From: Klebsiella phage NU-KP11
Sequence record: OR644643.1
Length of the DNA stretch: 64,000 bases
Direction: 5' to 3' (one strand)
The notes below the pieces were generated by a model. That model saw only the letters and a program-made list of their open reading frames with translations. It had not been told where the DNA came from and ran no database searches. Shown piece by piece: positions 1 to 19,047 of the stretch (positions are counted from its first letter, which is position 1; every line of letters begins with the position of its first letter). Made by a program: the position numbers and the translations under genes.

Positions 1-99
1 GAAAGTGCTATTCAAATGCGTTATGGTGCTGGTGAAAACTACACCGAGTGGAACCGCGCACTGAATGACATTTATGATTTTGAATTTCAACCATATTGA
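1..99 (+). CDS. 3-prime end of a plus-strand CDS that starts before the window (hypothetical)
   Basis: Open frame 1 from position 1 to TGA at 97-99 (ESAIQMRYGAGENYTEWNRALNDIYDFEFQPY*). Confidence 0.3.
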   Translation, partial: ESAIQMRYGAGENYTEWNRALNDIYDFEFQPY

Positions 100-135
100 T
101 GTATACTGATTAAAACTAACCAATTGAGATAAATT

Positions 136-384
136 ATGAAACTGTTTAATAAAATTCGTTCTGTAGATGAAATCGTAGCAACTTTCGACAAAACCCTGTC
201 TGAACTGGAAGCGCGTATTGCTCACGATAATGAGCAGGTTGCACAGGTTGCAGCAGATCGTCAAGCAGCAGAAGAAGAACATCAGCGTAAGCTGGCGGAA
301 CTGGCTTCAAAAGAAAGCGATCATACTGCAAGTGCAACCCGCGCCGGACGTATCGCAGACAAGATCCGCAAACTGCTGGATTGA
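136..384 (+). CDS. hypothetical small coiled-coil protein (82 aa)
   Basis: ORF track. Charged, helical composition. Followed by a hairpin terminator. Confidence 0.5.
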   Translation: MKLFNKIRSVDEIVATFDKTLSELEARIAHDNEQVAQVAADRQAAEEEHQRKLAELASKESDHTASATRAGRIADKIRKLLD

Positions 385-387
385 TAC

Positions 388-416
388 AGGGGCGAAAGCC
401 CCTAAATATTTTTCTT
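388..416 (+). terminator. rho-independent terminator
   Basis: Hairpin AGGGGC-GAAA-GCCCCT followed by AAATATTTTTC, directly after the 136-384 stop. Confidence 0.6.
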
Positions 417-450
417 TAAGGGGCTTATATGAATAATTTGGTAGCGAAAC

Positions 451-873
451 ATGCCTGGATTAACCGCGCTTCTACTCACCGCGATCGCAAGCGAGCATTT
501 AAAGAAGCAAAACGTAAACAGAAACACAAAGGTAAGTGTGATGAAAACCGCTTTGATCATTCTTGAAGAAATTCCTGAAAATACAACGCTTTACAAAGTC
601 GAAACTGACGATAGCGAAGTAATTGAGATCCTCAAAACCGCCCACGGGCATTATGTAAACGGTTCCGGCAACACCAAAGAACAGGATTATGCTGTTGATG
701 TTGTTAACCTCATGCTGGGGCCGAATACCGATGATAACCTGAAATGGGCGCGTGAATCCAACATTCCTGAAAAGTATGTTGGTATGTTCTATCAGTGTAA
801 CATCGATAGCAAATCACCGTTTGAACCAGAAAAGAAAATCGATCTGATTGTTCGCACTGGGTTCTTCTTATGA
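451..873 (+). CDS. hypothetical protein. More likely start is ATG 541 (MKTALIIL), preceded by AAGGTAAG.
   Basis: ORF track. Internal ATG with T4-style RBS. No recognisable family. Confidence 0.45.
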   Translation: MPGLTALLLTAIASEHLKKQNVNRNTKVSVMKTALIILEEIPENTTLYKVETDDSEVIEILKTAHGHYVNGSGNTKEQDYAVDVVNLMLGPNTDDNLKWARESNIPEKYVGMFYQCNIDSKSPFEPEKKIDLIVRTGFFL

Positions 874-1097
874 GTATACAAATTCTGTTCAGTAAAGAAG
901 ATCCATTAGGTACGGAATCATCGGTTCAGCGCTTATTCTGGCATACAGATTATATAAAAAATCGATGTCGTGGCCCAAACAACACATGGGGAAGCAACAA
1001 CGATATTGACAAAGCAAAAATTTATCCTCGCGGAAAGGCGTACTGGAAAATTTTTGATATTCATCTTCATAAAACAATGAAAGATTCGAATGAATGA
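870..1097 (+). CDS. hypothetical protein (75 aa)
   Basis: ORF track. ATGA start/stop overlap with the previous ORF, typical T4-like gene packing. Confidence 0.4.
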   Translation: MSIQILFSKEDPLGTESSVQRLFWHTDYIKNRCRGPNNTWGSNNDIDKAKIYPRGKAYWKIFDIHLHKTMKDSNE

Positions 1098-1100
1098 TTA

Positions 1101-1160
1101 AAAAGCCCTTGACTTCGGTCAGGGGCTTTTGCTATATTAGCCATATCGAAACGAGATACC
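1101..1160 (+). promoter_or_regulatory. terminator hairpin with an embedded sigma70-like promoter (TTGACT -35 inside the stem, 18-bp spacer, TATATT -10); copy A of a repeated cassette
   Basis: AAAAGCCCTTGACTTCGGTCAGGGGCTTTTGCTATATTAGCCATATCGAAA. Hairpin GCCCTTGAC/GTCAGGGGC plus T-run. A near-identical copy lies on the minus strand at 19001-19047. Confidence 0.55.
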
Positions 1161-1177
1161 CTTTAAGGAGAAATACC

Positions 1178-1975
1178 ATGACTAACGCAACCGTAGTTAC
1201 TACCACTTACTTCATTTCTTCTGGTCGTAAAAATGCAATGTATACCTTGCGTGTTGAGCGTAGAGGTGGCGGTTATACTTCTGATAACTATATCTGCAAC
1301 TTATCTACCGATCCGGAGAAAGCGGAAGCGAAAGCGCGTGAGTATTTCGACCGTGTTTCAGCCCGTTTAACTGAAACTGATACTTTCAAAATGGTATTCC
1401 AGGGCTTTGCAGATTTCGATCTGTTCGAACGTCGCGGTAAACTGTCAGTGTTCGATACTGAAAAACTGGAACTGCTGGAAAAAGGGATCATGCCGATTGG
1501 CAAGCGTAAAGGCGAAGTAATTGCAGAAATGCCAATGTTTACTGTTCTTTGGTGGGCTGACCAGTCTAAAGAAGACAACAAAAACAGCCCTGTATTTGAC
1601 GCCGTGTGCGCTTACTGCATGGGTGTTGCACTGGAGAAGGATTATATCGCCAAACGCGAAGAAATCCGCGAACAGTGGGAACAAGAGCGCCAGGAACGCA
1701 TTTCTAAAGCTAACCACATCGGTGAAATCAAACAACGTCTGGAAATGACCGGAACCGTTGAGAAAGTGATTTCACTGGGATATACTCAAGTTTCTTACTA
1801 CACTTCTGTAGAAAGATTCATGACCAAAATTAATGTTGATGGTAATGTTGTTGTTTACTTCGGTAATAACATTGCAAACGAAGGTGATGAAATCACTTTC
1901 AAAGCAACCGTTAAAGAGCACGGAGAATACAAAGACGTTAAACAAACCATCGTTCAACGTGTAAAGGTTTTATAA
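1178..1975 (+). CDS. hypothetical protein (266 aa from ATG 1178)
   Basis: Strong RBS AAGGAG 8 nt upstream of ATG 1178. The track ORF begins at 1094 but reads through the terminator/promoter element. Confidence 0.6.
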   Translation: MTNATVVTTTYFISSGRKNAMYTLRVERRGGGYTSDNYICNLSTDPEKAEAKAREYFDRVSARLTETDTFKMVFQGFADFDLFERRGKLSVFDTEKLELLEKGIMPIGKRKGEVIAEMPMFTVLWWADQSKEDNKNSPVFDAVCAYCMGVALEKDYIAKREEIREQWEQERQERISKANHIGEIKQRLEMTGTVEKVISLGYTQVSYYTSVERFMTKINVDGNVVVYFGNNIANEGDEITFKATVKEHGEYKDVKQTIVQRVKVL

Positions 1976-2265
1976 TGACATACGAAGATATGCTTAATGA
2001 AGTGTGCGCGGGTAAAACCGCGTACCGCACTACCAACCCTGATATGATTGTGTTTCGTGAAGGGGATACAATCATCAGACGTACACACCGCAAGTGTGAA
2101 GTAAACCAGGTATTCATTGCCACGGTAGAAGAACAAAAGGCTACTGATTGGGATATCGTCATTGACGAAGAAAACCACGATGAGCTAGATCATCCGATAT
2201 TCATTTTGAGTGAAACTATCGGAATTCGACCATTCATGCATAGAAATTTTTGGGGGTATCAATGA
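1975..2265 (+). CDS. small protein (96 aa), tandem paralog 1; possibly DUF2829/Tad2-like
   Basis: N-terminus MTYEDMLNEVCAGKTAYR resembles the M-x-F-x-E-A-L-x-A-x-K-x-G-K-K-V-x-R signature recalled for DUF2829. No search was run. Confidence 0.45.
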   Translation: MTYEDMLNEVCAGKTAYRTTNPDMIVFREGDTIIRRTHRKCEVNQVFIATVEEQKATDWDIVIDEENHDELDHPIFILSETIGIRPFMHRNFWGYQ

Positions 2266-2531
2266 CGTTCGATGAGGCTATGAGAGCCGCTAAGAGAGGT
2301 TGTAAGGTTGCGCCAATAGGTAGGCCATTCTTCGTGTATTATCACGACAGCGCTGGATACAGGAGGGTTACGTTGGGGGTTTCGGCAAGGAATGAAGATT
2401 ATGTTCCGGATCCGTGGGACAAATTGAAAGTTTGGGATATTTACGAGAAAAATAGCCCGGTGATGAACTTCTTTAAAGCAATCAAACGGGCTATTGGAAG
2501 ATCACACAATTTAACACCAGCATTACGTTAA
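2262..2531 (+). CDS. small protein (~89 aa from MTFDEAMRAAKRGCKVAP), tandem paralog 2; possibly DUF2829/Tad2-like
   Basis: N-terminal motif MTFDEAMRAAKRGCKV is shared with the upstream ORF. Stop codon abuts the holin t stop. Confidence 0.45.
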   Translation: MTFDEAMRAAKRGCKVAPIGRPFFVYYHDSAGYRRVTLGVSARNEDYVPDPWDKLKVWDIYEKNSPVMNFFKAIKRAIGRSHNLTPALR

Positions 2532-3179
2532 TCACCTCGCTCGACCTAAAATGCGCGCGGCCTGTCCACATATGATGTTTAGCTTCATATCTGGTATATC
2601 AGGCCGCTTTGCATACCATTCCATCAAAACCGATCCAGAATAGTAGTTATCAAGATTAAAATAAGGGCAACTAAAAGTATAAGCTACTGGCACAAAATCA
2701 CGTGTCGGTAGGTAGGAACTTGCTTTAGTGGATGAATAATACAAGCCATTTATATGATTCGTGTATTCTTCGGATGTTTTATCGATCGGATAACCGCCGA
2801 GGTTTTTAGGATCGATCTGGGATGGTAATTTTCCCTGATATTCTACAATGTCAACAAAATAGTTTATATTCTTTGGTCTGAATGCCAATACCGCTGAAAA
2901 ATCCGCGTTGGAAGTAAGATGAACTATGCTCAACTGTTCCAACGCGGATTGATTAAACTTTTCTGTTCTTTCCATTTCGATAGCCCTTGTATCGACTACA
3001 AGGGCACCTTTTATCATCGGGAATATATCAGTCCATTTGTACCAAGTTACTACCATAAGAAACATAACCATTATTAGAATTATTTTTATCAGCAATTGTT
3101 TCCATGTTTTCACACCCATCACAAACGAGATTACCCGATCAAATAAGGCTAGTTTATCTACGGGATTTCTCTCAGCCAT
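2532..3179 (-). CDS. t: holin t
   Basis: Colinear similarity to T4 gp t (ERTxxFxxxALEQLxIVHxxSxADFSAV, FRPKNxNYFVDIxxYxGKLPS, SCPYFNLDN, ICxQAARILGRA). Located after gene 38 as in T4. Confidence 0.9.
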   Translation of the reverse strand: MAERNPVDKLALFDRVISFVMGVKTWKQLLIKIILIMVMFLMVVTWYKWTDIFPMIKGALVVDTRAIEMERTEKFNQSALEQLSIVHLTSNADFSAVLAFRPKNINYFVDIVEYQGKLPSQIDPKNLGGYPIDKTSEEYTNHINGLYYSSTKASSYLPTRDFVPVAYTFSCPYFNLDNYYSGSVLMEWYAKRPDIPDMKLNIICGQAARILGRAR

Positions 3180-3221
3180 TTTATAAGACTCTTCTTAGGT
3201 TACTATACGTATATTTAGGAT

Positions 3222-3252
3222 ACAACAAAAAAGGCTACCTGTATGGTAGCCT
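3222..3252 (-). terminator. rho-independent terminator after gene 38
   Basis: Minus-strand hairpin AGGCTACC-ATAC-AGGTAGCCT followed by TTTTTTGTTG. Confidence 0.6.
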
Positions 3253-3258
3253 TTAAAA

Positions 3259-3786
3259 TTATATCTCAGTAATGATCCCAGAAATGGTTACACCTACGTT
3301 ACCATTAAGAAAACCATACCAATCTTTACTCATCGCGTCATAGTTTCTGAATCCATCACGCATATAACTTGATATCCTGAAATCAAAAGTCCATTGTTGA
3401 TTGTTATCTACACGGGTAAACAAAATGCGTACATTTCGATTTGGCCCGTCATAGATTGTTAAGTTAGAATAGTTTTCTGCTGAATCGCCGATAGCGCCAA
3501 TAGTACCAATCTGCTTACCATTATAATCACCAACGATAGTATAAGCAGAGTCAGAAATGTTGTACCATACACCAGTATCAGCACCCTTACGCCAAACACC
3601 ACGCCAACGAGTGTTGTTATACCAACGTTCCTGGGGAACAAAAGTAAAATGCCATTTGCTACGCCCAATTAATTGAGACATATAAAATGGTGTTCCAAGT
3701 CGAACTACGGCAGCAGCTTGAATCATGGATCGTTGTCCAGTTTCATTAACCGCCGAACTTCCAACTAGTGGGCCGGAAATAGCCAT
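3259..3786 (-). CDS. 38: gp38 tail-fibre adhesin of the T2/S16 type, short variant without glycine-rich motifs
   Basis: N-terminus MAISGPLVGSSAVNETGQRSMIQAA...RLGTPFYMSQLIGRS matches the conserved gp37-attachment domain of T2/T6-type gp38. C-terminal ~115 aa is W/Y-rich and has no poly-Gly. Located between 37 and t. Confidence 0.75.
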   Translation of the reverse strand: MAISGPLVGSSAVNETGQRSMIQAAAVVRLGTPFYMSQLIGRSKWHFTFVPQERWYNNTRWRGVWRKGADTGVWYNISDSAYTIVGDYNGKQIGTIGAIGDSAENYSNLTIYDGPNRNVRILFTRVDNNQQWTFDFRISSYMRDGFRNYDAMSKDWYGFLNGNVGVTISGIITEI

Positions 3787-3795
3787 TAGTTAACC

Positions 3796-3818
3796 TCCGA
3801 AAAGGGGCCGAAGCCCCT
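3796..3818 (-). terminator. hairpin AAGGGGCTTCGGCCCCTTTT between genes 37 and 38 (terminator or RNA stability element)
   Basis: Perfect 7-bp GC stem, CGAA/UUCG loop and a 4-T run. Same 18-mer at 52941-52958; variant at 34576. Confidence 0.4.
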
Positions 3819-6800
3819 TAATTAAGTTTTCTTTCAAGTTCATTAACTTTAGCAGTTAACTTGTTGACCTGATCTACCAGAACCGCAACAATCGCATTAT
3901 AGTTCAAGCGAATATGTTCAGGATCTGAATCATCAACAGCAGTAGGAAGGCTTTCCTGAACTTCCTGAGCAATAAGCCCCGTTGATTTAGTCCATGCGTC
4001 ATCTGCTGTAGGATCTCGAACTTCGTAATGATAAGCTGACATTTTGCTCAAAATTTCTTCGGAGCTTTCAACTTTAGTGATATTACGTTTATGTCGTTTA
4101 TCGGAAGTTATATAAACATCCTGTGCGTACAACGTACCGTTACACGACATATCACCATTATTACGGAATTCGAACCAACCGTTACTGTTAGCCCCAAACA
4201 CATGAAGCATATGGAAATGACGTTCGCCTACACGTTCAACAAATATATTCTCAGAACCGAGGTCGGTTCCTTGCATAAGATGTCTTACGCCACGAACTTC
4301 ACGAACCCAGCGGTTTCCTGCGTTGGCATCCTGATACGCGCGTGTACCTGCGCAATCAATAGAACCTTTGTTGTAGAAGTTAGCTTTGTTCCTGTCTTCG
4401 TTGTTTTCGCCAGTACCACCGTTGTTAACACCAACGTTCAGTTCGCCTTGCTGAATGATAAAGTAGTTACCAGTGTTCCATATAACGTTTTTACCGTTTA
4501 TATTACTAAACCCGATATTACCAGCAGCATCAGCAAACAAAATACCACGATTTGTATTACCGTCCGTATGCCTAAAGTTAATAGACGCCCAGGCGTTATT
4601 ATCACTCGTTGGCTGAATAATCGGAGAACCTTTAACACGAAGACCTGTTGTCAGTTCCGCATGGTTTGCTCGAAACATTCCATTTGTATGAAATTCAAAC
4701 CATCCAGTATTATCTCCTGCTGTTGATTGTAATCCAATGAATGCGCTATTTCCTACACGTTCTGTAAATCGCAGAGTTCCTAAATTAGAACCAGCACCAA
4801 ACATCGTAATGCCGTCGGTTTCGTTGACAGTAACAGAACCTTCTGTATACGTCCTGATCCCCCGTTTCTCGATTGGCCCTACATTATTAACCGTTAATGT
4901 GTTGTTTAATGTAGTAGCACCAGAAACAGTTAACGTACCAGTAGCAGACATATTTCCGTTTGCACTGATATTACCATTAACTATCATGTTACCACTAGAA
5001 TCAATCCTTGTTTCGTTTGTGCTGGATGTATCTCCTTGAGGACGTAGATAAATCGTTTGTCCAGCTTTAGCAGAAATAATCAACGCACCGCCGTTATTAG
5101 CCCTGATTTTAGCCCCTTGTGCATACTCGATCGCGGTATCACCACCACTTCCAGCGGTAGCAGTTACTTTGATCAAGTTGTTGGTTTGAGTTGGGCCACC
5201 AGGACGCAATTCAACAGCACGACCACCACCAGAACTACCAATAATCACGCGACCATCAGTACTTTCTAACAGAGCACTACCACTACCGATCACAACACCT
5301 TTATCAGTGTACTTCGTGGAAGAAGCACCACCTAACCCTAAGTTGCCACCTACGCGAGCGTTGTTAGCAACAATCAGATCATTTCCGCTGTTCAGGTTTC
5401 CTGTAGTCGTGGTAACAGATTTAAATGATACATCGTCATCGTTTCCGCTAATGACGTTCATTCTCCACGGTGTCCATGCTTTAGCAGTACCGCTAACAGT
5501 GAACCAACGTTCCCAACTGCGTTTATTGTCCGATGCGCGTAATACTTGACGGTTAGTGTAATCTGTATCGCTTACTTTACGGAGACATTCAACAATAACA
5601 ATAAAGTTACCACCGACGCCAGAAGGTTTATTGGTGATGTTATCACCGCCACCCATACTACGGCACGAATAAACTTTAACAGTACCCGGTTCGGTATAGT
5701 TCAATGTTAAAGCATCAAGATCCTGAGTTACCCCAGTCAAATCATACGCAGCAACAGGGCCAGTAAATCCACCAGTTGAATTAACCACACCAGCAACGTT
5801 AATATCACGCCCGAAGTTAACTACCCATCTGTTTATTGTATCCGAAGACAACAGCCATGCGTTTTGTGTCTGGTTTTCTGCTTCACCGTAACGAATATCA
5901 CCGTTTACATCAATACCCAAACGTTTCATGTTCATACCGGAAAGTTTGAACCCGATAGACAAGTTCGAGTTAGTCGGTCTATTCAGTAACAGCGGAGTGT
6001 GCTGCGAACCACTAATAGAAACGGTTTGTTCGGTTGTAGTTGAACTTGTGTTATTAAAGTTCGCATAGGATGTATTAACAGTTCGACCGTTAAATGCACC
6101 ATATGTGATGTTAATATTACCCGGTGATGTAAATGTACCGTCAGATTTAAAAGAGAATTCTCCACCTGTCGTTCCACCACTCGTTCTGGCACGAATGCGA
6201 ACTTCACCAGAAGAGGCAGTGTTAGGCAACGCCCACACAGCACCACTTTCAACCCCTTTATACTTAAACCAAATTACGGAGTTTCCGCTCTCAGCATTCA
6301 AATGAAAACCAGGTGATGTTTTCGAGATCGTTAGATCACCAGACATCGTATCACCAACACGTGCAACAGCCCCTACGTCATCAGGAGTCGGTTTAAATGC
6401 AGTACCGTACAGTTCCTGGAAGTTGATTCTTCCTGTATCTGAGTTTAAGTTAGCATCATTAGTTGCACCAACTTTAACGCGACCAGTATTCCAATCAACT
6501 GAGATCACCGCATGAACATCTGATACAGAACTATAAAAACTTGCGCCCATACCATAGTTAATTTCAGTACCAAGCGTATTTCGCATGAACTGAGAACCAT
6601 CAGTACGCAGTTGTTTCAGATAGTCGCGAGCGTTAGAAACGGTGTATGATGTACCCTTACCGCCTAAACCGTAAGCACCAACAAGCATTACTTGTCCGGA
6701 ACCTGTACCAACATCACGGGTTGCAGCAGTACCCAAACCTAAGTTTGTGCGAGCAGCAGCCGCTGTACTTGCGCCTGTACCACCTTTAGCAACAGACAGA

Positions 6801-8020
6801 ATACCATCAGTACCATCGTCAAGGTTAGGTTTGTTCATTTCGTCATAGATACGAATAACCGTACTCTCAACTAACCCTTCCGGAGCAGTTGCAGAGATTG
6901 TGTAACCAGTAGGCAGATAATATTCAGTAGCAGCACCGCCAGCGATAGACAGCAGAGCAACTTTAACACCACCAATGAATGCGCGTTGAGTAAACCACAG
7001 TTCTAAACCTTCGGAGGTACGAACCAGGCTATAACGCATCTGGTTAGTATAATCAATTGCAGTATCTCCTAAACGTCGAACTTGCAGGTAAGAACGAACG
7101 TTACCGCTTGTTAATGTCGATGGAATGCTTCGAGCGCTACAATCGATAAAGTCAATAGAACTGCGCGTATTGCCATAGTTACCGCCGTTAGTCACCATCA
7201 GTTGCAAGCGACTCTGACCTGAGCCAGGATCTTTTAACAGAGCAACTTTAATCCAACGAGTTTCGTTACCTGTAGTTACAGGGAAATTATCTTGCTCAAG
7301 TTGACGCGCGTTTTCAACCCGCCCGATCCCCAGTTCGGTTAAAGTCGGTTTACGACCGTCCCAGTATACAGGTTTTGCTTGAAACAGCAATTCACCGCCA
7401 TCAGTGATCGTTAACTGATTTGTTGCACCGCCAGCCGTGTTACGCATATAGATATCAGCACCACCAGCGCCGAAATATGCTTTGTTTTTTGAAATAAAAG
7501 CAGAACCACCACCGCCCATAGCTTCATCAATATAGATGTTACCTGGTACGCGAGTGTTACCACCGGAATCAATAAGTTTCAGAGTACGGCGAACAGTATC
7601 ACCAGAACCACGGGAAACGAAACGGATCTCTTCATCACCGTCATCAATTGTACCGATTTCTAAAAACCCTTTATTACTCTCACCACCAGAACCAATGTAC
7701 CAACCATCGTTAAGAGCGTTTCTACCAGTGATATGACGAACCACACCCCCGCTCAAATCCGCGTTGCTGAAAGTAATAGTTTTACCTTCCGCTACGGTAA
7801 CGGTATCATTAAGAGCACTAGGCCCATCAACTGTTAATTTTTTGGTATTTGTTTCTGGGATACCTTTACCCGCTAACTGAACGATCGAAGAACCATTTTT
7901 CGTGTAAATGGCATAATCAGCCATGTTGATCGCCAGTTCACCATCTGCAAGCTGACTTGTAGTAGGTGTTTTCCCCGCAACTGTGCTACGTAGGAATTGA
8001 ATTTTTGCTAAATCAGCCAT
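3818..8020 (-). CDS. 37: long tail fibre distal subunit gp37 (1400 aa) with a C-terminal intramolecular chaperone / peptidase S74-like domain
   Basis: Position and size. Long beta-rich Gly/Asn/Thr repeats. C-terminus DVYITSDKRHKRNITKVE... followed by a coiled-coil tail matches the S-D-x-R-x-K autocleavage motif of endosialidase/T5 pb1-type chaperone domains. Confidence 0.85.
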   Translation of the reverse strand: MADLAKIQFLRSTVAGKTPTTSQLADGELAINMADYAIYTKNGSSIVQLAGKGIPETNTKKLTVDGPSALNDTVTVAEGKTITFSNADLSGGVVRHITGRNALNDGWYIGSGGESNKGFLEIGTIDDGDEEIRFVSRGSGDTVRRTLKLIDSGGNTRVPGNIYIDEAMGGGGSAFISKNKAYFGAGGADIYMRNTAGGATNQLTITDGGELLFQAKPVYWDGRKPTLTELGIGRVENARQLEQDNFPVTTGNETRWIKVALLKDPGSGQSRLQLMVTNGGNYGNTRSSIDFIDCSARSIPSTLTSGNVRSYLQVRRLGDTAIDYTNQMRYSLVRTSEGLELWFTQRAFIGGVKVALLSIAGGAATEYYLPTGYTISATAPEGLVESTVIRIYDEMNKPNLDDGTDGILSVAKGGTGASTAAAARTNLGLGTAATRDVGTGSGQVMLVGAYGLGGKGTSYTVSNARDYLKQLRTDGSQFMRNTLGTEINYGMGASFYSSVSDVHAVISVDWNTGRVKVGATNDANLNSDTGRINFQELYGTAFKPTPDDVGAVARVGDTMSGDLTISKTSPGFHLNAESGNSVIWFKYKGVESGAVWALPNTASSGEVRIRARTSGGTTGGEFSFKSDGTFTSPGNINITYGAFNGRTVNTSYANFNNTSSTTTEQTVSISGSQHTPLLLNRPTNSNLSIGFKLSGMNMKRLGIDVNGDIRYGEAENQTQNAWLLSSDTINRWVVNFGRDINVAGVVNSTGGFTGPVAAYDLTGVTQDLDALTLNYTEPGTVKVYSCRSMGGGDNITNKPSGVGGNFIVIVECLRKVSDTDYTNRQVLRASDNKRSWERWFTVSGTAKAWTPWRMNVISGNDDDVSFKSVTTTTGNLNSGNDLIVANNARVGGNLGLGGASSTKYTDKGVVIGSGSALLESTDGRVIIGSSGGGRAVELRPGGPTQTNNLIKVTATAGSGGDTAIEYAQGAKIRANNGGALIISAKAGQTIYLRPQGDTSSTNETRIDSSGNMIVNGNISANGNMSATGTLTVSGATTLNNTLTVNNVGPIEKRGIRTYTEGSVTVNETDGITMFGAGSNLGTLRFTERVGNSAFIGLQSTAGDNTGWFEFHTNGMFRANHAELTTGLRVKGSPIIQPTSDNNAWASINFRHTDGNTNRGILFADAAGNIGFSNINGKNVIWNTGNYFIIQQGELNVGVNNGGTGENNEDRNKANFYNKGSIDCAGTRAYQDANAGNRWVREVRGVRHLMQGTDLGSENIFVERVGERHFHMLHVFGANSNGWFEFRNNGDMSCNGTLYAQDVYITSDKRHKRNITKVESSEEILSKMSAYHYEVRDPTADDAWTKSTGLIAQEVQESLPTAVDDSDPEHIRLNYNAIVAVLVDQVNKLTAKVNELERKLN

Positions 8021-8028
8021 GTTTCACC

Positions 8029-8697
8029 TTAATAAGATCCAAAATCTATGATAGTCCCTTTAGTAATTACCTGGTCGAGCCGTGGTACGTGTTCGGGACG
8101 GGAAGCCGCGCCTGTGCTCGCGAATTGCGGGGCAGTTAATAGCCCTGTCATTGTATCGCCAGCGCGTAATACCCTGCTATTAGCATTTGTTGTGACAGTA
8201 TTTATCTGTCCATCAACATAACTTTTTCGTGTTGCATGACTTGCGTCAGTAGGGTTAGCGGTTGTAATACTGATTTGTTTTTCAACCGTAATATTACCCT
8301 GAGTGTTTAAATCACCATTTCGAGCGTTGATGACTAATACGCGACCATTAGTACCGGAAGATGAACGAATACCAATACCATACCATGATACAAGATCCAT
8401 GTTAGCTTTTGATAATGTCGCGCCATCACCATCACCAGAATATAAACCGTTCTGGTCACTTCCGCCTGTGAAAGTAGCGTTAATTTGTAGCCCCTGTTTA
8501 AAGGCAACTACACCCAAATATTGACCACCGCTTGCTTTAGAAACGAAGTCGTTATTTGATGCTTGTGGTTTATCGTTTTCAGTATAAACCTTATATCCGC
8601 GATAGGTTAGAGTATTACCAACCGGAACCAGCGGAAATGTGCCGGAGTGCCAAATAGGTAAACCCCCGACTGTAGAACCAGCTTTTAAATCTGCCAT
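8029..8697 (-). CDS. 36: long tail fibre distal connector gp36
   Basis: MADLKAGSTVGGLPIWHSGTFPL...NNDFVSKASGGQY is colinear with T4 gp36 (221 aa). Confidence 0.9.
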   Translation of the reverse strand: MADLKAGSTVGGLPIWHSGTFPLVPVGNTLTYRGYKVYTENDKPQASNNDFVSKASGGQYLGVVAFKQGLQINATFTGGSDQNGLYSGDGDGATLSKANMDLVSWYGIGIRSSSGTNGRVLVINARNGDLNTQGNITVEKQISITTANPTDASHATRKSYVDGQINTVTTNANSRVLRAGDTMTGLLTAPQFASTGAASRPEHVPRLDQVITKGTIIDFGSY

Positions 8698-8714
8698 AAT
8701 AACCCCTTTTTACA

Positions 8715-8722
8715 TATTTATA
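8715..8722 (-). promoter_or_regulatory. late promoter (TATAAATA) for gene 36
   Basis: Minus strand reads ...GGCCCGGATCATCGGGCCTTATAAATATGTAAAAAGGGGTTATTATG. Exact T4 late -10 about 18 nt upstream of the ATG, immediately after a hairpin. Confidence 0.6.
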
Positions 8723-8746
8723 AGGCCCGATGATCCGGGCCTTTGT

Positions 8747-9883
8747 TTATGCATCAACTTCACGGAATTCGGAAGCAGAATAATCGCCACCAGGATAAAC
8801 CTTAGTATTCGGCAATTCAAATATATACGGTGTTCCACCATCGATCATGTTGTTCATTCTGATACCGTTAACCCCAAACTGTGCAGCAAAGTTTTGATCA
8901 GCTTCGACAGCAGATACCTGAACCATCACGAAGTTACGGATCGCAGATAAACTATCCGTAGCGGGTTTAGGATAACGAGATACAGCAACGTTAAATCCAT
9001 CACAACCACTGGGGATCGTATAGAACTGTTCAAATCGTAACCACTCATCAGGTTTATTTGCAGGAACTTCAATCACCGATGATGAAGTTTGAGCAGTACC
9101 CGTAAACCATCGAACAGTAACCCTTGTTGTTGATCCAGCATCCAATAATTCTTTACTGGCGTAAAAATCACCAGTAATCATCATAGCCAATCCAGGAGCC
9201 ATACCATAATCAGCTAGTTTAGAGATCACTGGGTTTGCAACAGGATACACTTTATATTCAGATCCATTGGTTGAATTGTATTCTTCCGTATCTTCAACAG
9301 ATCGGAAAGGTACACCAGTTCGACCAACATCACCAACGTTATCATAGACAAGATCGATTGATGCGCGTGAATCTTCTTTTAAAATTCCATCGTTCGCGTA
9401 AAACGATTCAATCAGTATACGAGATTTTGCGGCCCCATACAATGCAACATATGCAGAATTTGGGAATCTCTGAGCGAAATCAGCGCCTTGCCACATAACG
9501 GATCTGTTTTTAGCAAACCAATCATCAACGATTTGGCTTGTTTTGTATTCACCGTTAGTCATTATCAAATACAGCCCAGAAGTTTGAGCATCCATATATT
9601 CAACAAACGCTTTGTTTGCAGTTGCTGAATTATCATTCGATAATGTGAAGGTTTTAATTGGATCAACTATAGCATTGTTAATTCTCCATACGTTGATCCC
9701 AACACTAGGCGGTGTCCCTACCGCCTTTTGATTTAGTGTAAACTCATACTGATTAGGAACCGCATTGGGATGTGTTGCCTTTGCGGTTATTCTGTAAGTT
9801 ACGCTGTTTGTTTCCGATAGAATTTGCGTTTCTACAAAATCGGGGCCGAACCCCGCCATTAAGTTTGACATTATGCCACCCAC
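8747..9883 (-). CDS. 35: long tail fibre hinge protein gp35
   Basis: C-terminus GVNGIRMN...EFREV matches T4 gp35. Size 378 vs 372 aa. Position between 36 and 34. Confidence 0.8.
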   Translation of the reverse strand: MGGIMSNLMAGFGPDFVETQILSETNSVTYRITAKATHPNAVPNQYEFTLNQKAVGTPPSVGINVWRINNAIVDPIKTFTLSNDNSATANKAFVEYMDAQTSGLYLIMTNGEYKTSQIVDDWFAKNRSVMWQGADFAQRFPNSAYVALYGAAKSRILIESFYANDGILKEDSRASIDLVYDNVGDVGRTGVPFRSVEDTEEYNSTNGSEYKVYPVANPVISKLADYGMAPGLAMMITGDFYASKELLDAGSTTRVTVRWFTGTAQTSSSVIEVPANKPDEWLRFEQFYTIPSGCDGFNVAVSRYPKPATDSLSAIRNFVMVQVSAVEADQNFAAQFGVNGIRMNNMIDGGTPYIFELPNTKVYPGGDYSASEFREVDA

Positions 9884-12800
9884 TCAAATTTAACTGTCTG
9901 AGTAACCGGATCTGGGTAAATCTTAACATTACCAACTTTGATCCAATCGGTAACAGTCATGTTTTTAACCGTAGTACCAACAGCAGACGTTGCACCAATC
10001 TCGCCAGCAGTAGGCGGGTTGTTGCTGGTATACATGCGGCCCCACTCATCAAATTTACCCGTGATTGGGTTCATTTGACGGATCCAGAAGGATTGCGCCA
10101 GCGCATTAACACCAGTACCAGAGGTCGGACGAGGTGCCCAAATCTGATAAGTGAATGCAGTTCCGTTACCAAACTGCGTTAAAGTACCAGGTGCTTTAAC
10201 ATAGGTATAACGGGTTACAATCATGATATCCGGATTAATCGGGTCTGGTTCAAGAACCGGAACCGCATAACCAGGAAGCAAGTTGTACTGTGCCGATGCA
10301 GTGATCTCCGCCGTCCAGTTACCCCTAGATGCTTCTGTTACTGCATCCAGCGTTGACCAAGCCGCTTGACCTGCGATGATAATTGAACTGTTGTTTACCG
10401 TCAACCGTCCAGACATCGTATCACCTGCTTTACGTACATACGTAGGATTCAGCAAGGTTTGCGCGTTCTTCTCAGTAAAGACTTTATAAGAGTTCGCAGA
10501 TTCTTCCGCTACGATGTTGCCAGCATCAGAAGTCAGGATCTTAGTTGTCTTATTTTTAGTACCCATAGAGAGAACAGAACCAGCAGCCGTGATCACTGTA
10601 TCATTACCCAGCGTCACTTTGCTAATCGCCTGAATTTCAGGAGCCTGGAATTTAACGTTAGCTACAACGCCGCGAGTATCATTATACACAGAAAGATGAA
10701 CTGTGCTAGTGTTACCCGTTGAGATCATTGCAATACGCCCAGAGGCTGAACTTGCTTGAATTGACCAGTCGTTAGATGAACCACCATTCAAACGAAGTTT
10801 ACCCATCGATGAACCATCACCAACGTTCAGATCTCCACTAACATTCATTACCCGGAAACTTGCGTCGGCTGTTGAATTAATGTCAGCCTGTACAGTGGTT
10901 GCTTTCGTTAGAGTCAATGCCCCGTTAACCGTCTGATTAACATCACGACGAATGAACTGGGAAGAATCCAGGTTATCCAGCTTATCAGCATCAACCGCTT
11001 TAGCCCCGATCGGCAGATAGTGTTTCAGTGTTAAGTTCAGTTCATACGGAGAAACAGCAACACCTACAGCGGCATAACCATCATCCGGAAGAGTAGAACC
11101 AGCCACATCATTACCCGACCAAGTACCAAGCCCCTTAGACAGCTTCACAGTACCACGTACCAGATCGGTAGCTTGCCATGAAGTATCAACCTGAATTGTA
11201 TTTTTCAAGTTCTTAGGAGAAACAGCCTTGTTTGCAACGGTGCCAGCAGTAGTTTCAGTAGCCGTAGCCACCTGAATGATACCTTCTGCGCTCTCAGTCG
11301 CTTTCTTAGCGTGTAACTTCTTAGGGGTGACAAATACTGTATCTAATGTCCCTGCGTTCGTCTCAGACTGTGTAGCGACGCGTAAAGTACCACGTTGAGT
11401 TTCAGTTGCTGATTGAATACCGATGTTAACCGTAGTCCAGATAGTCCCAGATTGAGTTAACCCGTCAGCAGTAGCAACAGTAATATGGCTTGTATCGTCC
11501 AGATAACCTTTCAGTTTAGACGGTACGATCGCTTTATTCGTTACAGTACCTGCTGATACTTCGGCAGTGGTTGCAATTGCAATGATACCTGTCAGCGTTT
11601 CTGTTGCAGCACGATCGTTAAGCGTTTTAGGCGTTACCGCTCGCGTATAATCAGTCCCTGCGTTGGTTTCTGTCTGAGTAGCAATCTCGATCAAACCAAT
11701 ACGACCATCAGTAGAGGTTTTCTTGTGCAGCATTTCCGGAGTAACTACGGTCGGGATGTTTGCACTTGCAACAGTACCGTTAATAACTTCGGTTTCAGAA
11801 GCCAGCCATACAGCACCGGATTGTAACTGAGTCGCTTTATACTCACGAAGAGTTTTAGGCGTTACCGCTTTCTGATAATCTGAATGGTCATAAACCCCAG
11901 TACCAGCCTGAGCACGATCCGTGTTAGTGTTAGGAGCACCACCAGTAGCAACAAGGGCAAGGATACCAGTTAAGGTCGGCGATGCAATACGGTTATGCAA
12001 CTTTTTCGGGGTTACAATCGTAATATCATCGGTGCTTCCGTTTGTTTCTGCCTGAGTTGCGATTTCTGCCAATCCACGACGGGTTTCAGTCGCTGTTCTT
12101 TCGTTCAGCTTCTTAGGGGTAACAATCACATCATCCAGATAGCTATCGGTTGAAAGTTTGTTAACCTCGGCAGTTGTTGCTAACCGTGCAATACCACGAC
12201 GGGTTTCTGTAGCAGTTTTATTTGCTAACGTCATCGGAGTAATAGCAGTTTCGTCGTTCGGGTTATCTTCTAGGTTTTTGTTTACTTCTGCCTGTGCAGC
12301 CAGAGCAATAACACCAGTACGCGATCTGTTAGTTGCGTCAACACGTTCAACGATCGGACGATAATTAGCAACAACCCATTCTTTCGTAGCTTTCAGGTAA
12401 GAAAACTCGATATACGGGAGGTAATCACTAGCAGCATTAAATGCTAATGAAGTTACGCTAAACCAATCATCGGGCGGATAGTCTTTGCGCTGCGGGAACT
12501 GCATCATATTTTTGTTGGTGCGGATCTTGTCCGTTGTACCATCTTTAACTTTGATTGTACAGTTCTGGTTCTTACCCATCATATAAAGGGATACGTAAAC
12601 GCGATCACCATCAGCAACATCAGTTGGAAGGGTAACTGTAACGTTTGGTATAGTCCCAGAAGGGTTTGCAGTAACAAAAACGTAATCGTTAGGAACCGCG
12701 TTTAAATCACTGTAGATACGACGCAGACGAACACGGTTGTCAGCATCATATACTTTCCATTGGCTATTCTGTGCATCAAAGATGAACATACCAAAGCCGG

Positions 12801-13644
12801 ATTTCTGGCTAGTTACAGAAGTAACACCAGTACTTGCGCCGTCAGAAATAGTGTGTCCACTACCTGGATAAATCTGCAAAACGGCTACGTTGATAGAGTT
12901 CATTTTATCAGCGTCATAGGTTGTGATCACATCACCATCATTTGCATATTTCGGCAACTGGAGAGTGATTTTACCTGTAGCACTGTTACGGAAAACTGTC
13001 ATGCCAGATTGTAACTGGAATGAACCTGTTCCGGTTGCGTTCACGATCTCAGAATCGCGGTTATCCAGAGTTTCAGCAACACGCCATACGTTACCGTTAT
13101 AGATAAACGTTGCGATCATGTACGGGTGGGTCAGTCGATACTGTGCCGATTGTACAGTACGTAAACGGATCTGACGGGTGTTAGACTTAACAAGGATACT
13201 GTTCACACCTACTAAACCACCACAATCTTTAAACGTGATTACGTCGCCCTCTGTCGGGTTGTCCGGCAGCAGGTACAGAAGTTCAGTAAAGCGTCCATCA
13301 GCCATAATGTAACTACCAGATTCAATAATGCTACCATCTGGAGTGGTTACGTTACTATAAACCCATTTCGGGTCATTACGAGTTGCGATCCATTTGGATT
13401 CGTCGAAAGCCCCAGCAGGGGAAGCAATATTCTGTTTTGCGTACCAGATACGACGCGCATAAATGATCGCCATGTCTTGAGAATAACCACGGGTCGGGTC
13501 ATACTGCTGGATTCCGTTAAATTCATTGAAAAAGTCAACGTTAACGCCGTCACTCAGCGTATTACGATCAGCCTTCCCAACGTTGATAACTTTTTCACCA
13601 GCAGCATCAAGGCCACTTCGTGCGCGGAATGATTTAGCTACCAT
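9871..13644 (-). CDS. 34: long tail fibre proximal subunit gp34 (start at MVAKSFRA)
   Basis: Extensive colinear identity with T4 gp34 (QQYDPTRGY, TATETRRGIARLATTA, ITPKKLNERTATETRRG, HKKTSTDGRIGLIEIATQ, LDSSQFIRRD, C-terminal GNVKIYPDPVTQTVKFEWV). Track ORF starts 45 nt upstream but homology begins at ATG 13644. Confidence 0.95.
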   Translation of the reverse strand: MVAKSFRARSGLDAAGEKVINVGKADRNTLSDGVNVDFFNEFNGIQQYDPTRGYSQDMAIIYARRIWYAKQNIASPAGAFDESKWIATRNDPKWVYSNVTTPDGSIIESGSYIMADGRFTELLYLLPDNPTEGDVITFKDCGGLVGVNSILVKSNTRQIRLRTVQSAQYRLTHPYMIATFIYNGNVWRVAETLDNRDSEIVNATGTGSFQLQSGMTVFRNSATGKITLQLPKYANDGDVITTYDADKMNSINVAVLQIYPGSGHTISDGASTGVTSVTSQKSGFGMFIFDAQNSQWKVYDADNRVRLRRIYSDLNAVPNDYVFVTANPSGTIPNVTVTLPTDVADGDRVYVSLYMMGKNQNCTIKVKDGTTDKIRTNKNMMQFPQRKDYPPDDWFSVTSLAFNAASDYLPYIEFSYLKATKEWVVANYRPIVERVDATNRSRTGVIALAAQAEVNKNLEDNPNDETAITPMTLANKTATETRRGIARLATTAEVNKLSTDSYLDDVIVTPKKLNERTATETRRGLAEIATQAETNGSTDDITIVTPKKLHNRIASPTLTGILALVATGGAPNTNTDRAQAGTGVYDHSDYQKAVTPKTLREYKATQLQSGAVWLASETEVINGTVASANIPTVVTPEMLHKKTSTDGRIGLIEIATQTETNAGTDYTRAVTPKTLNDRAATETLTGIIAIATTAEVSAGTVTNKAIVPSKLKGYLDDTSHITVATADGLTQSGTIWTTVNIGIQSATETQRGTLRVATQSETNAGTLDTVFVTPKKLHAKKATESAEGIIQVATATETTAGTVANKAVSPKNLKNTIQVDTSWQATDLVRGTVKLSKGLGTWSGNDVAGSTLPDDGYAAVGVAVSPYELNLTLKHYLPIGAKAVDADKLDNLDSSQFIRRDVNQTVNGALTLTKATTVQADINSTADASFRVMNVSGDLNVGDGSSMGKLRLNGGSSNDWSIQASSASGRIAMISTGNTSTVHLSVYNDTRGVVANVKFQAPEIQAISKVTLGNDTVITAAGSVLSMGTKNKTTKILTSDAGNIVAEESANSYKVFTEKNAQTLLNPTYVRKAGDTMSGRLTVNNSSIIIAGQAAWSTLDAVTEASRGNWTAEITASAQYNLLPGYAVPVLEPDPINPDIMIVTRYTYVKAPGTLTQFGNGTAFTYQIWAPRPTSGTGVNALAQSFWIRQMNPITGKFDEWGRMYTSNNPPTAGEIGATSAVGTTVKNMTVTDWIKVGNVKIYPDPVTQTVKFEWVA

Positions 13645-13676
13645 TATCTTTTTTCCTATATTGTATTCAATACCAA

Positions 13677-13684
13677 TATTTATA
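13677..13684 (-). promoter_or_regulatory. late promoter (TATAAATA) for gene 34
   Basis: Minus strand TTTTTTGTATATAAATATTGG, about 33 nt upstream of ATG 13644. Confidence 0.6.
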
Positions 13685-13712
13685 TACAAAAAATGGCCCG
13701 AAGGCCATTTAA
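13685..13712 (-). terminator. rho-independent terminator upstream of the gene 34 late promoter
   Basis: Minus-strand hairpin AATGGCC-TTCG-GGCCATT followed by TTTTTTG. Confidence 0.55.
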
Positions 13713-13723
13713 CTGATTATTTA

Positions 13724-14023
13724 TTACTTCCGAACCATCTTTTTATATTTCTTGATTGTTTCGTCTGTAATCTGGTTTCGCTTATATAGAGGGGTTACAC
13801 CGAACGCCTCAACACCACGTTCATTAAGGATCGTTGCTACGATTTCCTGTCTGATAAACCAGCGCTTAACCTTTTCCGGAAACTGTTCATTGATGCTTTT
13901 AAACAGTTTGGCTTCCCAACTATCCAACGTTTCAGGGTGGATAATATGATCAAACCCTTCCAGAAAATCAATAGTTGTTGCGTGAATAGCGTTTGCTACT
14001 TTGCGAATGTATTCTTTATTCAT
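13724..14023 (-). CDS. hypothetical protein (99 aa)
   Basis: ORF track. Compact gene packing. No recognisable family. Confidence 0.55.
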   Translation of the reverse strand: MNKEYIRKVANAIHATTIDFLEGFDHIIHPETLDSWEAKLFKSINEQFPEKVKRWFIRQEIVATILNERGVEAFGVTPLYKRNQITDETIKKYKKMVRK

Positions 14024-14301
14024 GCTTCACCCAAATACTCTTTCAATTGCATATAACCGCCAATAAAATTACCATCTACAAAGATCCGAGGGTAAGTAAA
14101 TGCCATGCTTCGACTACGAACACGTTTCGCTAACTCTTCAATGCGGGGCCGATCGTAATCAAACCCCACACTGTTATTTGCTGGCTTTAGAACAGAATAA
14201 AATTCGTATTCTAATCCATGCTCATCAAGTAATTTCCGAGCTTCAATACAACCATAACATTTATGAAGCGATTCGGGAATACCGTAAATCTCGATTTTCA
14301 T
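14020..14301 (-). CDS. nrdH: glutaredoxin-like protein (NrdH-like), start at MKIEIYG
   Basis: MKIEIYGIPE...CYGC...FVDGNFIGGY thioredoxin-fold motifs. AAGGAAAG RBS upstream of ATG 14301. Adjacent to the nrdG/nrdD cluster. Confidence 0.7.
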   Translation of the reverse strand: MKIEIYGIPESLHKCYGCIEARKLLDEHGLEYEFYSVLKPANNSVGFDYDRPRIEELAKRVRSRSMAFTYPRIFVDGNFIGGYMQLKEYLGEA

Positions 14302-14929
14302 CAATTGCTTTCCTTCGTGCCGGAGTGATTTTGCTAATGATATCTTTCTTTGTATCAGAAAGCATACGCTCAATCAATTCCACCGCTTCAAGTTGTTGAT
14401 GCAGAGAAAGAAGGTTAATGATTTCCTTTTTCTGTTCATCAATAGCAGCTTCCTTGTCAATCGCGTACAGCTTATTATCACCGAAAACATGCTGTAATGC
14501 AAATTCAAGTGCCTGTGAATCAGTCGGCGCTGGTAGTACAGAAATCGAAGTGATCCGCTTGACAAAAGGATAATCAAATCGCAGATCATTGATATCTTGT
14601 TGAACAGGTTTTACAGTCATCCACATTTTAGGATCGGAAGATACAAAATTTAAAACAGGCGCGGCGACTTCTTCTTTAGTAGCGATCTTCGGTTCTTCTT
14701 CCGGCAAATCATATGCTTTGAAGTATTTCCAGATATGGCTAGGGATCTCATATTCGAAATCATCTTGCAGAACATAAGCAATGTCCTCAGTATCCCCAAT
14801 CGCAATACGATCGATTGTGATATAGCCGTTGTTTTTGATCAATTCAGCTAAAGCATTTCGCCAGGTTTTTTCTGCAAATTCTTTAGCGTCGATGTTCAGG
14901 GTATAAGATTTACCTTCTAATAATTCCAT
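14261..14929 (-). CDS. hypothetical protein (222 aa)
   Basis: ORF track. GAGGTG RBS. Confidence 0.55.
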   Translation of the reverse strand: MELLEGKSYTLNIDAKEFAEKTWRNALAELIKNNGYITIDRIAIGDTEDIAYVLQDDFEYEIPSHIWKYFKAYDLPEEEPKIATKEEVAAPVLNFVSSDPKMWMTVKPVQQDINDLRFDYPFVKRITSISVLPAPTDSQALEFALQHVFGDNKLYAIDKEAAIDEQKKEIINLLSLHQQLEAVELIERMLSDTKKDIISKITPARRKAIDENRDLRYSRIAS

Positions 14930-14937
14930 GTGTCACC

Positions 14938-14966
14938 TCATAAAAAAGGGTGCCGGAGCACCCAGT
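14938..14966 (-). terminator. rho-independent terminator
   Basis: Minus-strand hairpin GGGTGC-TCCG-GCACCC followed by TTTTTTAT. Confidence 0.5.
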
Positions 14967-14971
14967 TTAAT

Positions 14972-15946
14972 TTACTTGCTTACTTCTGCTACTTTTCGAG
15001 CAGCTTTGCGAACCAGGTCGGAAGCAGTACGCAGATTTTGAAGCGCGTCATCATGGGCTTTAACCGCTTCTTCAAGCTGTGCCATTGCTTTTGCGATTTC
15101 TTCTTTCTTAGCCGCTTCGTCTACGTTGATAGCGATAGTGCTATTACCGGAAACGCTAACAGGTTCATCAACAGTTCCGGTCGCCAGTTCACGGAAGAAC
15201 GAACGTTCAGAATCAACCAGATAGTAACCAACTTTTCCGGTCGGGGAATCAATGGTCTCTACCGTTTTGCTCAATTGATGATGTCCGTGTGCATTTGTAT
15301 GGTAAACGGTGTATACACCATTACTGTGTTCATCGGTATATGATTTGATCCCGTTGTTAGCACCACAACGATTTTTAAATTGCTGCGGTTTAACCAGAAC
15401 ATACGAACGGCCTTCAACAAATTTAGTCGGATCCAGTTCAACCGATATTGCCGAACCACCATCAAGCATTTGATCAAGATCTGCGGTTACTGGTGCAACA
15501 GGCGCAACCGGAGCCGTAACGTTGGCTTTTTTCGGTTTAGCTTTCGTTTTCTTAACCGGAGCCGCGCCAACTTCGACGAAATAACGAGCTTCCCACGAAC
15601 GCAGAGAGCTAAAAGTCATTTCCGGAGTATGCTCAATTTTGAAAGTATCTGAATTGGTTTTCGAGATAATTTTTACCTCGTTATTCAGGAATTTTTCGAT
15701 CTGTCTCGCCTGGATAGTGTTTGCGGTGTTAGATCCGCCGTGTGAATTGGTAGTAAACCCTTCACGGTCAACCAGTTTGTAAGTTTTACCAACCACGAAC
15801 GTTTTCAGTTCATTTGCTTGAACTGTCCACGGGCAAGAACCGCGCCCTGTATTACGGATGGTTTTCAGGGGAATGTTCCACTTCCAGCAGTAGTTACGCG
15901 CTTCTTTACGGGTTTTGAAATTCAGGATCATGATATTATCTCTCAA
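14972..15946 (-). CDS. hypothetical protein (324 aa) with a central Ala/Pro/Val/Lys-rich linker
   Basis: ORF track. Linker APVKKTKAKPKKANVTAPVAPVAPV separates two globular halves. Confidence 0.55.
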   Translation of the reverse strand: MRDNIMILNFKTRKEARNYCWKWNIPLKTIRNTGRGSCPWTVQANELKTFVVGKTYKLVDREGFTTNSHGGSNTANTIQARQIEKFLNNEVKIISKTNSDTFKIEHTPEMTFSSLRSWEARYFVEVGAAPVKKTKAKPKKANVTAPVAPVAPVTADLDQMLDGGSAISVELDPTKFVEGRSYVLVKPQQFKNRCGANNGIKSYTDEHSNGVYTVYHTNAHGHHQLSKTVETIDSPTGKVGYYLVDSERSFFRELATGTVDEPVSVSGNSTIAINVDEAAKKEEIAKAMAQLEEAVKAHDDALQNLRTASDLVRKAARKVAEVSK

Positions 15947-16000
15947 TTAAAGTTAATCGTCATTTACGATGTGGTAAGATTACCATAGTTACACATTAGG

Positions 16001-17016: not shown

Positions 17017-17228
17017 TTCATGTTACCTTTCTTCACGAGGATCAGTTCTTTGATCCGTTCAACAATAACGATGTATTCCCATTTAGCTAACTTTTGGGTA
17101 TCACACCACTTTTGAAACTCTTTCATAGCCTCTAAGTGACCTTTACTCCAGTACATTTCTGCAATTTCGTTGCAAAGAGTTTCAGTAGCAGTGTTTTTGA
17201 TTTTCATAACATCCTCCTTAGTTGACAA
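17013..17228 (-). CDS. hypothetical protein (71 aa)
   Basis: ORF track. Confidence 0.45.
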   Translation of the reverse strand: MSTKEDVMKIKNTATETLCNEIAEMYWSKGHLEAMKEFQKWCDTQKLAKWEYIVIVERIKELILVKKGNMK

Positions 17229-17267
17229 GAAGGATGTTACTACATTCAGATATACAGGTCAATACTT

Positions 17268-17519: not shown

Positions 17520-17528
17520 AATTTATAC

Positions 17529-19016: not shown

Positions 19017-19047
19017 AAGCCCTCAACCGAAGTCAAGGGCTTTTTGA
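19001..19047 (-). promoter_or_regulatory. copy B of the terminator plus sigma70-like promoter cassette (terminates nrdD; drives the downstream small gene)
   Basis: Minus strand AAAAAGCCCTTGACTTCGGTTGAGGGCTTTTGTTATATTGGGCCTATCGAAAAAGGAGACAGATTATG is near-identical to 1101-1160. Stem changes are compensatory (G-U wobbles). Confidence 0.55.

Follow-up and report, generated by a model that had tools for sequence, protein, structure and literature searches.

A repeated cassette with a putative intrinsic terminator and an embedded sigma70-like promoter in a T4-like Klebsiella phage

Can one short piece of phage DNA end a transcript and begin the next one with the same letters? This question is raised by a locus close to the first letter of the window, that is, the whole stretch of 64,000 nucleotides of Klebsiella phage NU-KP11 (OR644643.1) that was analysed. 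The original prediction placed a cassette of approximately 60 bp, consisting of a terminator and a sigma70-like promoter, at 1101–1160 on the plus strand, and a near-identical element on the minus strand at 19001–19047. Both could be recovered, the first with the sequence as described and the second at 19045–18990 (−). They are called copy A and copy B here, and their features are collected in Table 1. Judged by its sequence, each copy is very probably a PeSL-type cassette, in which an intrinsic terminator and a host sigma70 promoter are packed into about 45 bp, and the most likely action of the element, which is approximately 55 bp long, would be to stop one transcript and start the next.

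The first 6 kb of the window revealed 98.2% identity to Klebsiella phage pR7_1 and 94.5% identity to Enterobacter phage phiEap-3, both of which belong to the genus Slopekvirus of the T4-like family Straboviridae. T4 core genes could be found, which identifies the host genome as that of a T4-like myovirus, as expected of a phage with PeSLs. The scan for tRNA genes gave none in the window, and the Rfam scan of the whole window at the gathering threshold gave no covariance-model match. A tblastn search of pR7_1 with an approximate T4 AsiA query also gave no match. Copy A occurs among small genes between rIIB-ndd and the holin gene. Copy B directly follows nrdD, and the gene downstream of it, starting with the ATG at 18980, is the first of about twelve small ORFs in succession. 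Copies A and B are in inverted orientation, approximately 17.9 kb apart, and flank the holin and long-tail-fibre genes. When the four small proteins flanking A and B were searched against Pfam and PHROG, only families without assigned function were matched, and the cargo genes therefore give no functional clue.

Table 1. Positions of the two cassettes, their neighbouring genes and related repeats (window coordinates unless pR7_1 is named; minus-strand features may be listed in reading direction)
Feature	Position	Strand	Remarks
Copy A, composite cassette	1100–1153	+	A-run, hairpin, T-run, promoter and conserved start region ATCGAAAC
Copy A, sequence	from 1100	+	AAAAAGCCCTTGACTTCGGTCAGGGGCTTTTGCTATATT
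Copy A, A-run	1100–1104	+	
Copy A, hairpin	1101–1130	+	MFE −21.1 kcal/mol; one G-U pair
Copy A, GC core	1105–1126	+	5' arm 1105–1113, loop TTCG 1114–1117, 3' arm 1118–1126
Copy A, T-run	1127–1130	+	
Copy A, −35 TTGACT	1109–1114	+	1109–1113 in the 5' arm; 1114 is the first loop base
Copy A, extended −10 TGcTATATT	1130–1138	+	TG 1130–1131; TATATT 1133–1138
Copy A, predicted transcription start	1145	+	A of ATCGAAAC, 7 nt past the −10
Copy A, upstream small ORF	870–1097	+	75 aa; PHROG 10349; stop codon 1095–1097
Copy A, Shine-Dalgarno AAGGAG and downstream gene	1165–1170; gene to 1975	+	ATG 1178; 265 aa; PHROG 3628
Copy B, composite cassette	18990–19045	−	
Copy B, sequence	from 19045	−	AAAAAGCCCTTGACTTCGGTTGAGGGCTTTTGTTATATT
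Copy B, A-run	19045–19041	−	
Copy B, stem	19040–19019	−	5' arm 19040–19032, loop 19031–19028, 3' arm 19027–19019
Copy B, hairpin	19015–19044	−	including A/T extension; MFE −18.3 kcal/mol; two G-U pairs
Copy B, −35 TTGACT	19031–19036	−	
Copy B, extended −10 TGtTATATT	19007–19015	−	TATATT 19012–19007
Copy B, GGG discriminator	19006–19004	−	after the −10
Copy B, predicted transcription start	A19000	−	
Copy B, upstream gene nrdD	19048–21171	−	anaerobic ribonucleotide reductase; directly upstream of copy B
Copy B, Shine-Dalgarno AGGAG and downstream gene	18992–18988; gene to 18738	−	ATG 18980; 80 aa; PHROG 12911
Divergent family copies in pR7_1	27897, 32308, 34004, 103199		
AAAAGCCCCTTCCTTTCGGTTGGGGCTT family, window copy	37400–37432	−	
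AAAAGCCCCTTCCTTTCGGTTGGGGCTT family, pR7_1 copies	24016, 62800, 166318	−	

The layout of the two copies is the same. Each begins with an A-run right after the stop codon of the upstream gene (1095–1097 for A, and the nrdD stop codon at 19050–19048 for B), and on its 3' side each leads to a Shine-Dalgarno site and a start codon. For copy A these are AAGGAG and the gene at 1178, as predicted, and copy B likewise has AGGAG and the ATG at 18980. The claim of a stable hairpin with a T-run held for both copies, which fold into hairpins of 13 bp with a UUCG loop (z = −5.4 for A and −5.0 for B), and the orthologous site in phage KP27 carries a terminator call from ARNold. The core of hairpin A is lengthened by pairs between the A-run and the T-run. 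A simple terminator scan listed B and missed A, because the T-run of A is absorbed into the stem. The 3' arms, GTCAGGGGC and GTTGAGGGC, are different at three positions, while a perfectly complementary arm would read GTCAAGGGC; pairing had been said to survive these differences, and each of the three positions indeed still forms a Watson-Crick or G-U pair. The position of the −35 TTGACT inside the 5' arm with TATATT 18 bp downstream was found in both copies, the spacer being 18 bp against an optimum of 17 bp. In copy A, the TG of the extended −10 consists of the last T of the terminator T-run and a conserved G. The U-run is short (four U, then G), so the efficiency of termination is uncertain.

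Further copies of the element, whose absence would have counted against the original prediction, could be found. A profile search revealed two family members within the window and 11 copies in the pR7_1 genome (176,880 bp, reassembled from four pieces for the family search), seven of which are close and four divergent, the divergent ones being obtained by the profile search. The pR7_1 copies occur mostly inside runs of small hypothetical ORFs, and in the recovered sequences all 11 have a Shine-Dalgarno-like site and an ATG on the same strand within about 60 nt. The copy at 44265 has no TG extension, and its −10 reads TATTAT. In the copy at 61722 (+), one nucleotide is missing from the 3' arm (GTCGGGGC), and the resulting stem is bulged (−16.5 kcal/mol).

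BLAST with the 56-mer gave 1215 matching places in 207 phage records, with 6–9 places per genome in Slopekvirus. The matches extended over Slopekvirus, Karamvirus (CfP1, leB, GAP161) and Pseudotevenvirus (RB16, Lw1), and also included Yersinia phage JC221 and Pantoea phage Phynn. The RB16 orthologue of A has kept 35 of 39 core bases, and the genes flanking it are 72–78% identical. Phages of the RB49 group were absent from the 207 BLAST records, which indicates a sequence family distinct from the RB49 PeSLs. A scan of IMG/VR with a gap of N11-14 yielded a diverse set of elements. Nearly all of the matches listed there for the 14-mer GCCCTTGACTTCGG were chance occurrences inside GC-rich coding sequence, and about 7 among those listed were true elements. 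The same design (TTGACT as part of the 5' arm, a loop of YYCG type, a T-run, and either TATATT or TATTAT) was found with unrelated outer stems in the Escherichia jumbo phage 121Q (L179), in a distant uncultured T4-like contig (L133) and in several further viral contigs. Phage 121Q carries several cassettes with the stem AAAAAAGGGATTGACTCCGGTCAGTCCCTTTGCTATTAT among small hypothetical genes at 147–150 kb of its record, and its relatives gave 4–14 BLAST places per record.

Other stem-loops were also present in these genomes. A second repeat family, AAAAGCCCCTTCCTTTCGGTTGGGGCTT(T/C)TTTT, forms a terminator-like hairpin with a similar outer stem and has no −35, −10 or start motif. Its window copy is situated near the convergent junction of uvsW and uvsW.1, which in T4-like phages is reported to contain a conserved bidirectional terminator (PMC1524935). 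In pR7_1, the sites at 50068 (+) and 101241 (+) have a stem-loop directly before the −35, as in AAAGCCCCCTCTTTGGGGGCTTGACA...TATAAT, and thus the genome uses more than one PeSL layout. An isolated terminator-like hairpin with a UUCG loop, AACCCCTGTCTTCGGATAGGGGTTTTT, was observed between baseplate genes at 63599–63626 (−) of the window.

Under the reading of the element as a PeSL-type cassette, RNA polymerase coming from the upstream gene (the ORF at 870–1097 for A, nrdD for B) would transcribe the GC-rich hairpin, and the hairpin together with the U-run UUUUG(C/U)UAU would release the upstream transcript, at about 1133–1135 in copy A by prediction. The same DNA would be read by the sigma70 holoenzyme as a promoter. 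The 5' arm would provide the −35 TTGACT, the T-run and the conserved G would provide the TG of the extended −10, and TATATT would act as the −10. The TG extension would explain why the U-run is always broken by a G at one place. With the GGG discriminator that is present in most copies, the predicted first transcribed base is the A of ATCGAAAC (A1145 and A19000), and the product would be a short leader with a Shine-Dalgarno site ahead of a gene without assigned function, presumably expressed early. The predicted 3' end of copy A lies 10–12 nt before the predicted 5' end. Promoter-bound polymerase may also enhance termination, by analogy with the promoter-coupled terminators of bacteria. A search of the literature for transcript 5' or 3' ends of any Slopekvirus found none.

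A further and much more tentative proposal is that selection might have acted on the overlap itself to give a directional design, which unrelated enterobacterial phages would have in common through convergence or transfer. These would span Slopekvirus, Karamvirus, Pseudotevenvirus and 121Q as well as uncultured contigs, both T4-like and other. In this design, G-U wobbles would pair the TTG of the −35, a polymerase terminating in the spacer would either be stopped by the polymerase at the overlapping promoter or hand over to it, and small early genes might in this manner be insulated at a fixed level of expression. If this were so, only the sense strand would have a working hairpin, and the opposite strand would be free both of a mirror-image TTGAC −35 and of any efficient antisense terminator.

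Among the alternatives, the one that survives best gives the cassette a different main role in evolution, namely that of a portable recombination site by which small genes are shuffled, as in the mini-circle model for PeSLs, with regulation being secondary. Exchange between PeSLs has been demonstrated in RB49 and phi1 (PMC2839356), and the 6–9 BLAST places per Slopekvirus genome also count in favour. Comparison with RB16 revealed an inserted ORF of 225 bp (868–1092 (+) of the window, encoding the 75-aa protein of PHROG 10349), which is absent from RB16; homology resumes at the element, and the boundary is exactly at the left edge of copy A. Moreover, the orthologues of A carry three 3'-arm variants that also occur at other loci, a pattern that fits copy-to-copy conversion. 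However, this is the single indel boundary that was looked at, and its far end is not at a copy; the other indels seen are not at copies, and the large indel among close relatives in the first 6 kb sits in tail-fibre genes. An indel at copy A was also considered for the relatives with 74% coverage (H7-H15) and rejected, the gap being located in tail-fibre and adhesin genes instead. In KP27, an extra RB16p267-like ORF was observed between window positions 386 and 428. Since A and B are mutually inverted, an exchange between them would invert approximately 18 kb rather than excise a cassette. Recombination as the main role is rather unlikely, and it is compatible with a regulatory role, which it does not exclude. 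A secondary role as short homologous recombination sites, in the manner of PeSL shuffling, is plausible, if weakly supported.

It is improbable that the element is a terminator only, its resemblance to a promoter being a by-product of a stem that bears TTGAC and of the AT-rich region before genes. Promoter-like hexamer pairs are equally frequent in shuffled sequence: window positions 1–20000 showed no enrichment of promoter-like sites, with 39 observed against 45.8 expected, and the significance thus rests on the conserved composite and not on the hexamers alone. The pR7_1 genome also contains, in the AAAAGCCCCTTCCTTTCGGTTGGGGCTT family, a terminator-only repeat with a similar outer stem. That family, however, lacks precisely the −35, −10 and start motif, and these features are strongly conserved among the cassettes. 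In pR7_1, all 11 copies have retained TTG in the −35, the T-run, and T, A and the last T in the −10, at a −35 to −10 spacing of 17–18 bp, despite the changes in their stems. The A-run is invariant or nearly so, the G of the TG extension and positions 4 and 5 of the −10 (A, T) are each kept in 10 of 11, and the −10 reads TATATT in 10 copies and TATTAT in one. The GGG discriminator and an ATCGAAA-like motif at the expected start are common among the 11 although the stem varies, and weak −35 hexamers (TTGCAT, TTGCCT) were seen in four family members. An independent consensus scan of window positions 1–20000 ranked A and B as the top two sigma70-like sites, and as two of only three with a TG extension; their hexamers match the consensus at 10 of 12 positions, with an 18-bp spacer and TGnTATATT. 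The recurrence of the layout with unrelated stems in 121Q and other viral contigs also argues against a by-product of one particular stem.

Still less credible is the reading in which the element is a promoter and its inverted repeat serves a dimeric protein of phage or host as a DNA operator, with no role as an RNA hairpin or terminator. The repeat does overlap the −35, a classic operator position, and a recent preprint notes that terminator palindromes can also serve as transcription-factor sites (Fletcher et al. 2026, 10.64898/2026.08.19.745784). The original prediction had instead argued for selection on the RNA hairpin, and the pattern of change in the stem favours that argument. The 11 copies were defined purely by similarity of sequence, and 96% of their stem cells are paired. 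The inner stem has changed from GAC/GTC to GCA/TGC in three of them, and in the copy at 34004 CCCC/GGGG replaces GCCC/GGGC, with a 3-nt loop. In a set of 21 distinct elements that included other lineages, 98.4% of cells are paired, a percentage that is inflated because the set was chosen partly by folding energy. Both sides have changed in 6 of the 9 pairs of this set (26 cells), the informative double changes of the outer stem being GGGG/CCCC, GAGC/GCTC and GGGA/TCCC. None of 500 shuffles attained the observed values, and pairing fell to 53–58% when the partner was shifted by one column. The stems of different lineages can thus be wholly different with pairing retained, which does not suit a protein-bound site.

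The two strands also differ. One-sided variation is limited to four stem positions at which a transition yields G-U, namely those opposite T15, T16, G17 and G11 of the alignment; by a combinatorial estimate, the chance that four variable sites placed at random among nine would give this G-U-only pattern is 1/126. Across the 11 copies there are 15 G-U pairs and no A-C mismatch, so the sense hairpin is the more stable one, with a mean MFE of −19.3 kcal/mol against −14.6 kcal/mol for the antisense (a difference of about 5 kcal/mol). A DNA palindrome would not favour G-T over A-C, and such asymmetry points to the sense-strand RNA as the object of selection and speaks against a protein operator; the UUCG tetraloop and the U-run that follows it are likewise features of RNA terminators. 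The comparison of sequences therefore supports a hairpin selected as sense-strand RNA.

That the likeness of the two copies is due to chance or to a recent local duplication without function, as their being the only two in the window could suggest, is already refuted: the 38-nt degenerate consensus has exactly 2 matches in the window and matched in 0 of 100 dinucleotide-preserving shuffles, so that no matches are expected by chance, and 11 copies per genome are found, over at least three genera and beside genes of only 72–78% identity. Two other identities were also rejected. A MITE-like mobile element does not fit, since the sequence is without terminal repeats or target duplications and is followed by a start codon at a constant distance in every case. 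Nor does a leader structure of the downstream mRNA, given that the hairpin is upstream of the predicted start site.

The PeSL-type cassette thus remains the preferred reading. It would represent a compact natural part of 55 bp that probably insulates and drives early phage genes in Klebsiella and other Enterobacteriaceae. It can help in the annotation of the approximately 200 sequenced relatives with the cassette, and in phage engineering. It also adds a cleanly covarying example, from another T4-like group, to the ideas on PeSLs and on the coupling of terminators and promoters. The cassette opens no new question, as its class and likely function have already been described.

In lambdoid phages, a moron is a gene flanked by its own promoter and terminator. 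The present loci are similar in that small accessory genes have transcription signals of their own on either side. The signals of morons, however, are separate, non-overlapping and unconserved between insertions, whereas here they form one overlapping, repeated cassette.

Bacterial promoter-coupled terminators are closer in their geometry. In these, the −35 is located in the stem and the T-tract directly adjoins the −10 (Fletcher et al. 2026 preprint, 10.64898/2026.08.19.745784), termination precedes a start on the same strand by no more than 35 bp (mode about 10 bp), and promoter activity raises termination, as reported in the same preprint of the Grainger group (10.64898/2026.08.19.745784). 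The phage element has the same arrangement of −35 and stem and of T-tract and −10, the same position between tandem genes and an upstream A-tract, with transcript ends that are predicted here. The difference is that the bacterial cases are diverse chromosomal sites of Acinetobacter and other bacteria, whereas the phage element is a repeat of high identity.

The closest likeness is to the PeSLs, which were described in the T4-like phages RB49 and phi1 as a repeated early promoter of sigma70 consensus with a stem-loop (Arbiol 2010, PMC2839356). According to that study, PeSLs are clustered among small variable genes and fall into five positional subclasses, one of which has the stem over the −35; their stems have marked G-T pairs, reporter assays back both promoter and terminator function, and recombination between copies gives rise to mini-circles (PMC2839356). 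An association with nrdD and PeSL-like sequences in RB43 were also reported (PMC2839356). PeSLs were later extended to T4/PST and KVP40/nt-1, with stems and promoter consensus specific to each lineage (Comeau 2014, PMC4122927). The element studied here shares the sigma70-like, putatively early promoter with a terminator stem-loop, the intergenic position and the many repeats per genome. In both A and B, its 5' side starts at the upstream stop codon with an AT-rich stretch, and it ends in a Shine-Dalgarno site and a start codon, which belong to a small gene without assigned function. The G-T pairs in the stem, the subclass overlapping the −35, the neighbourhood of nrdD and the regions of small variable genes are also shared, and at the level of sequence the element has every feature of PeSLs that could be checked. 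PeSLs also mark places where close relatives differ by an insertion, deletion or replacement, for which the 225-bp ORF next to copy A is a single, anecdotal example here. It differs in its stem, which is AAAAAGCCCTTGAC/GTYRRGGGCTTTT with a UUCG loop and not polyG/polyC as in RB49, and in its 17–18 bp spacer and TG extension. The layout with the embedded −35, a minority subclass in phi1, is the sole layout of this family.

The site of copy A had also been marked before. In the GenBank record of KP27 (HQ918180), its orthologue is annotated as both 'terminator' (by ARNold) and 'promoter' with overlapping coordinates. Promoters and terminators are given in separate lists in the KP27 paper, which does not comment on their overlap, on the repeat family or on PeSLs (Maciejewska et al. 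2016, PMC5219037). The class, the likely function and the dual annotation of this site in KP27 are thus already known, and the element is real, conserved and very probably functional, a fresh sequence subfamily of the known class of PeSLs and promoter-coupled terminators. What is mildly novel compared with these systems is the exclusive use of the layout with the −35 embedded in the stem, the systematic G-U pairing of the −35 TTG, by which the hairpin becomes specific to one strand, and the recurrence of the design in unrelated phages.
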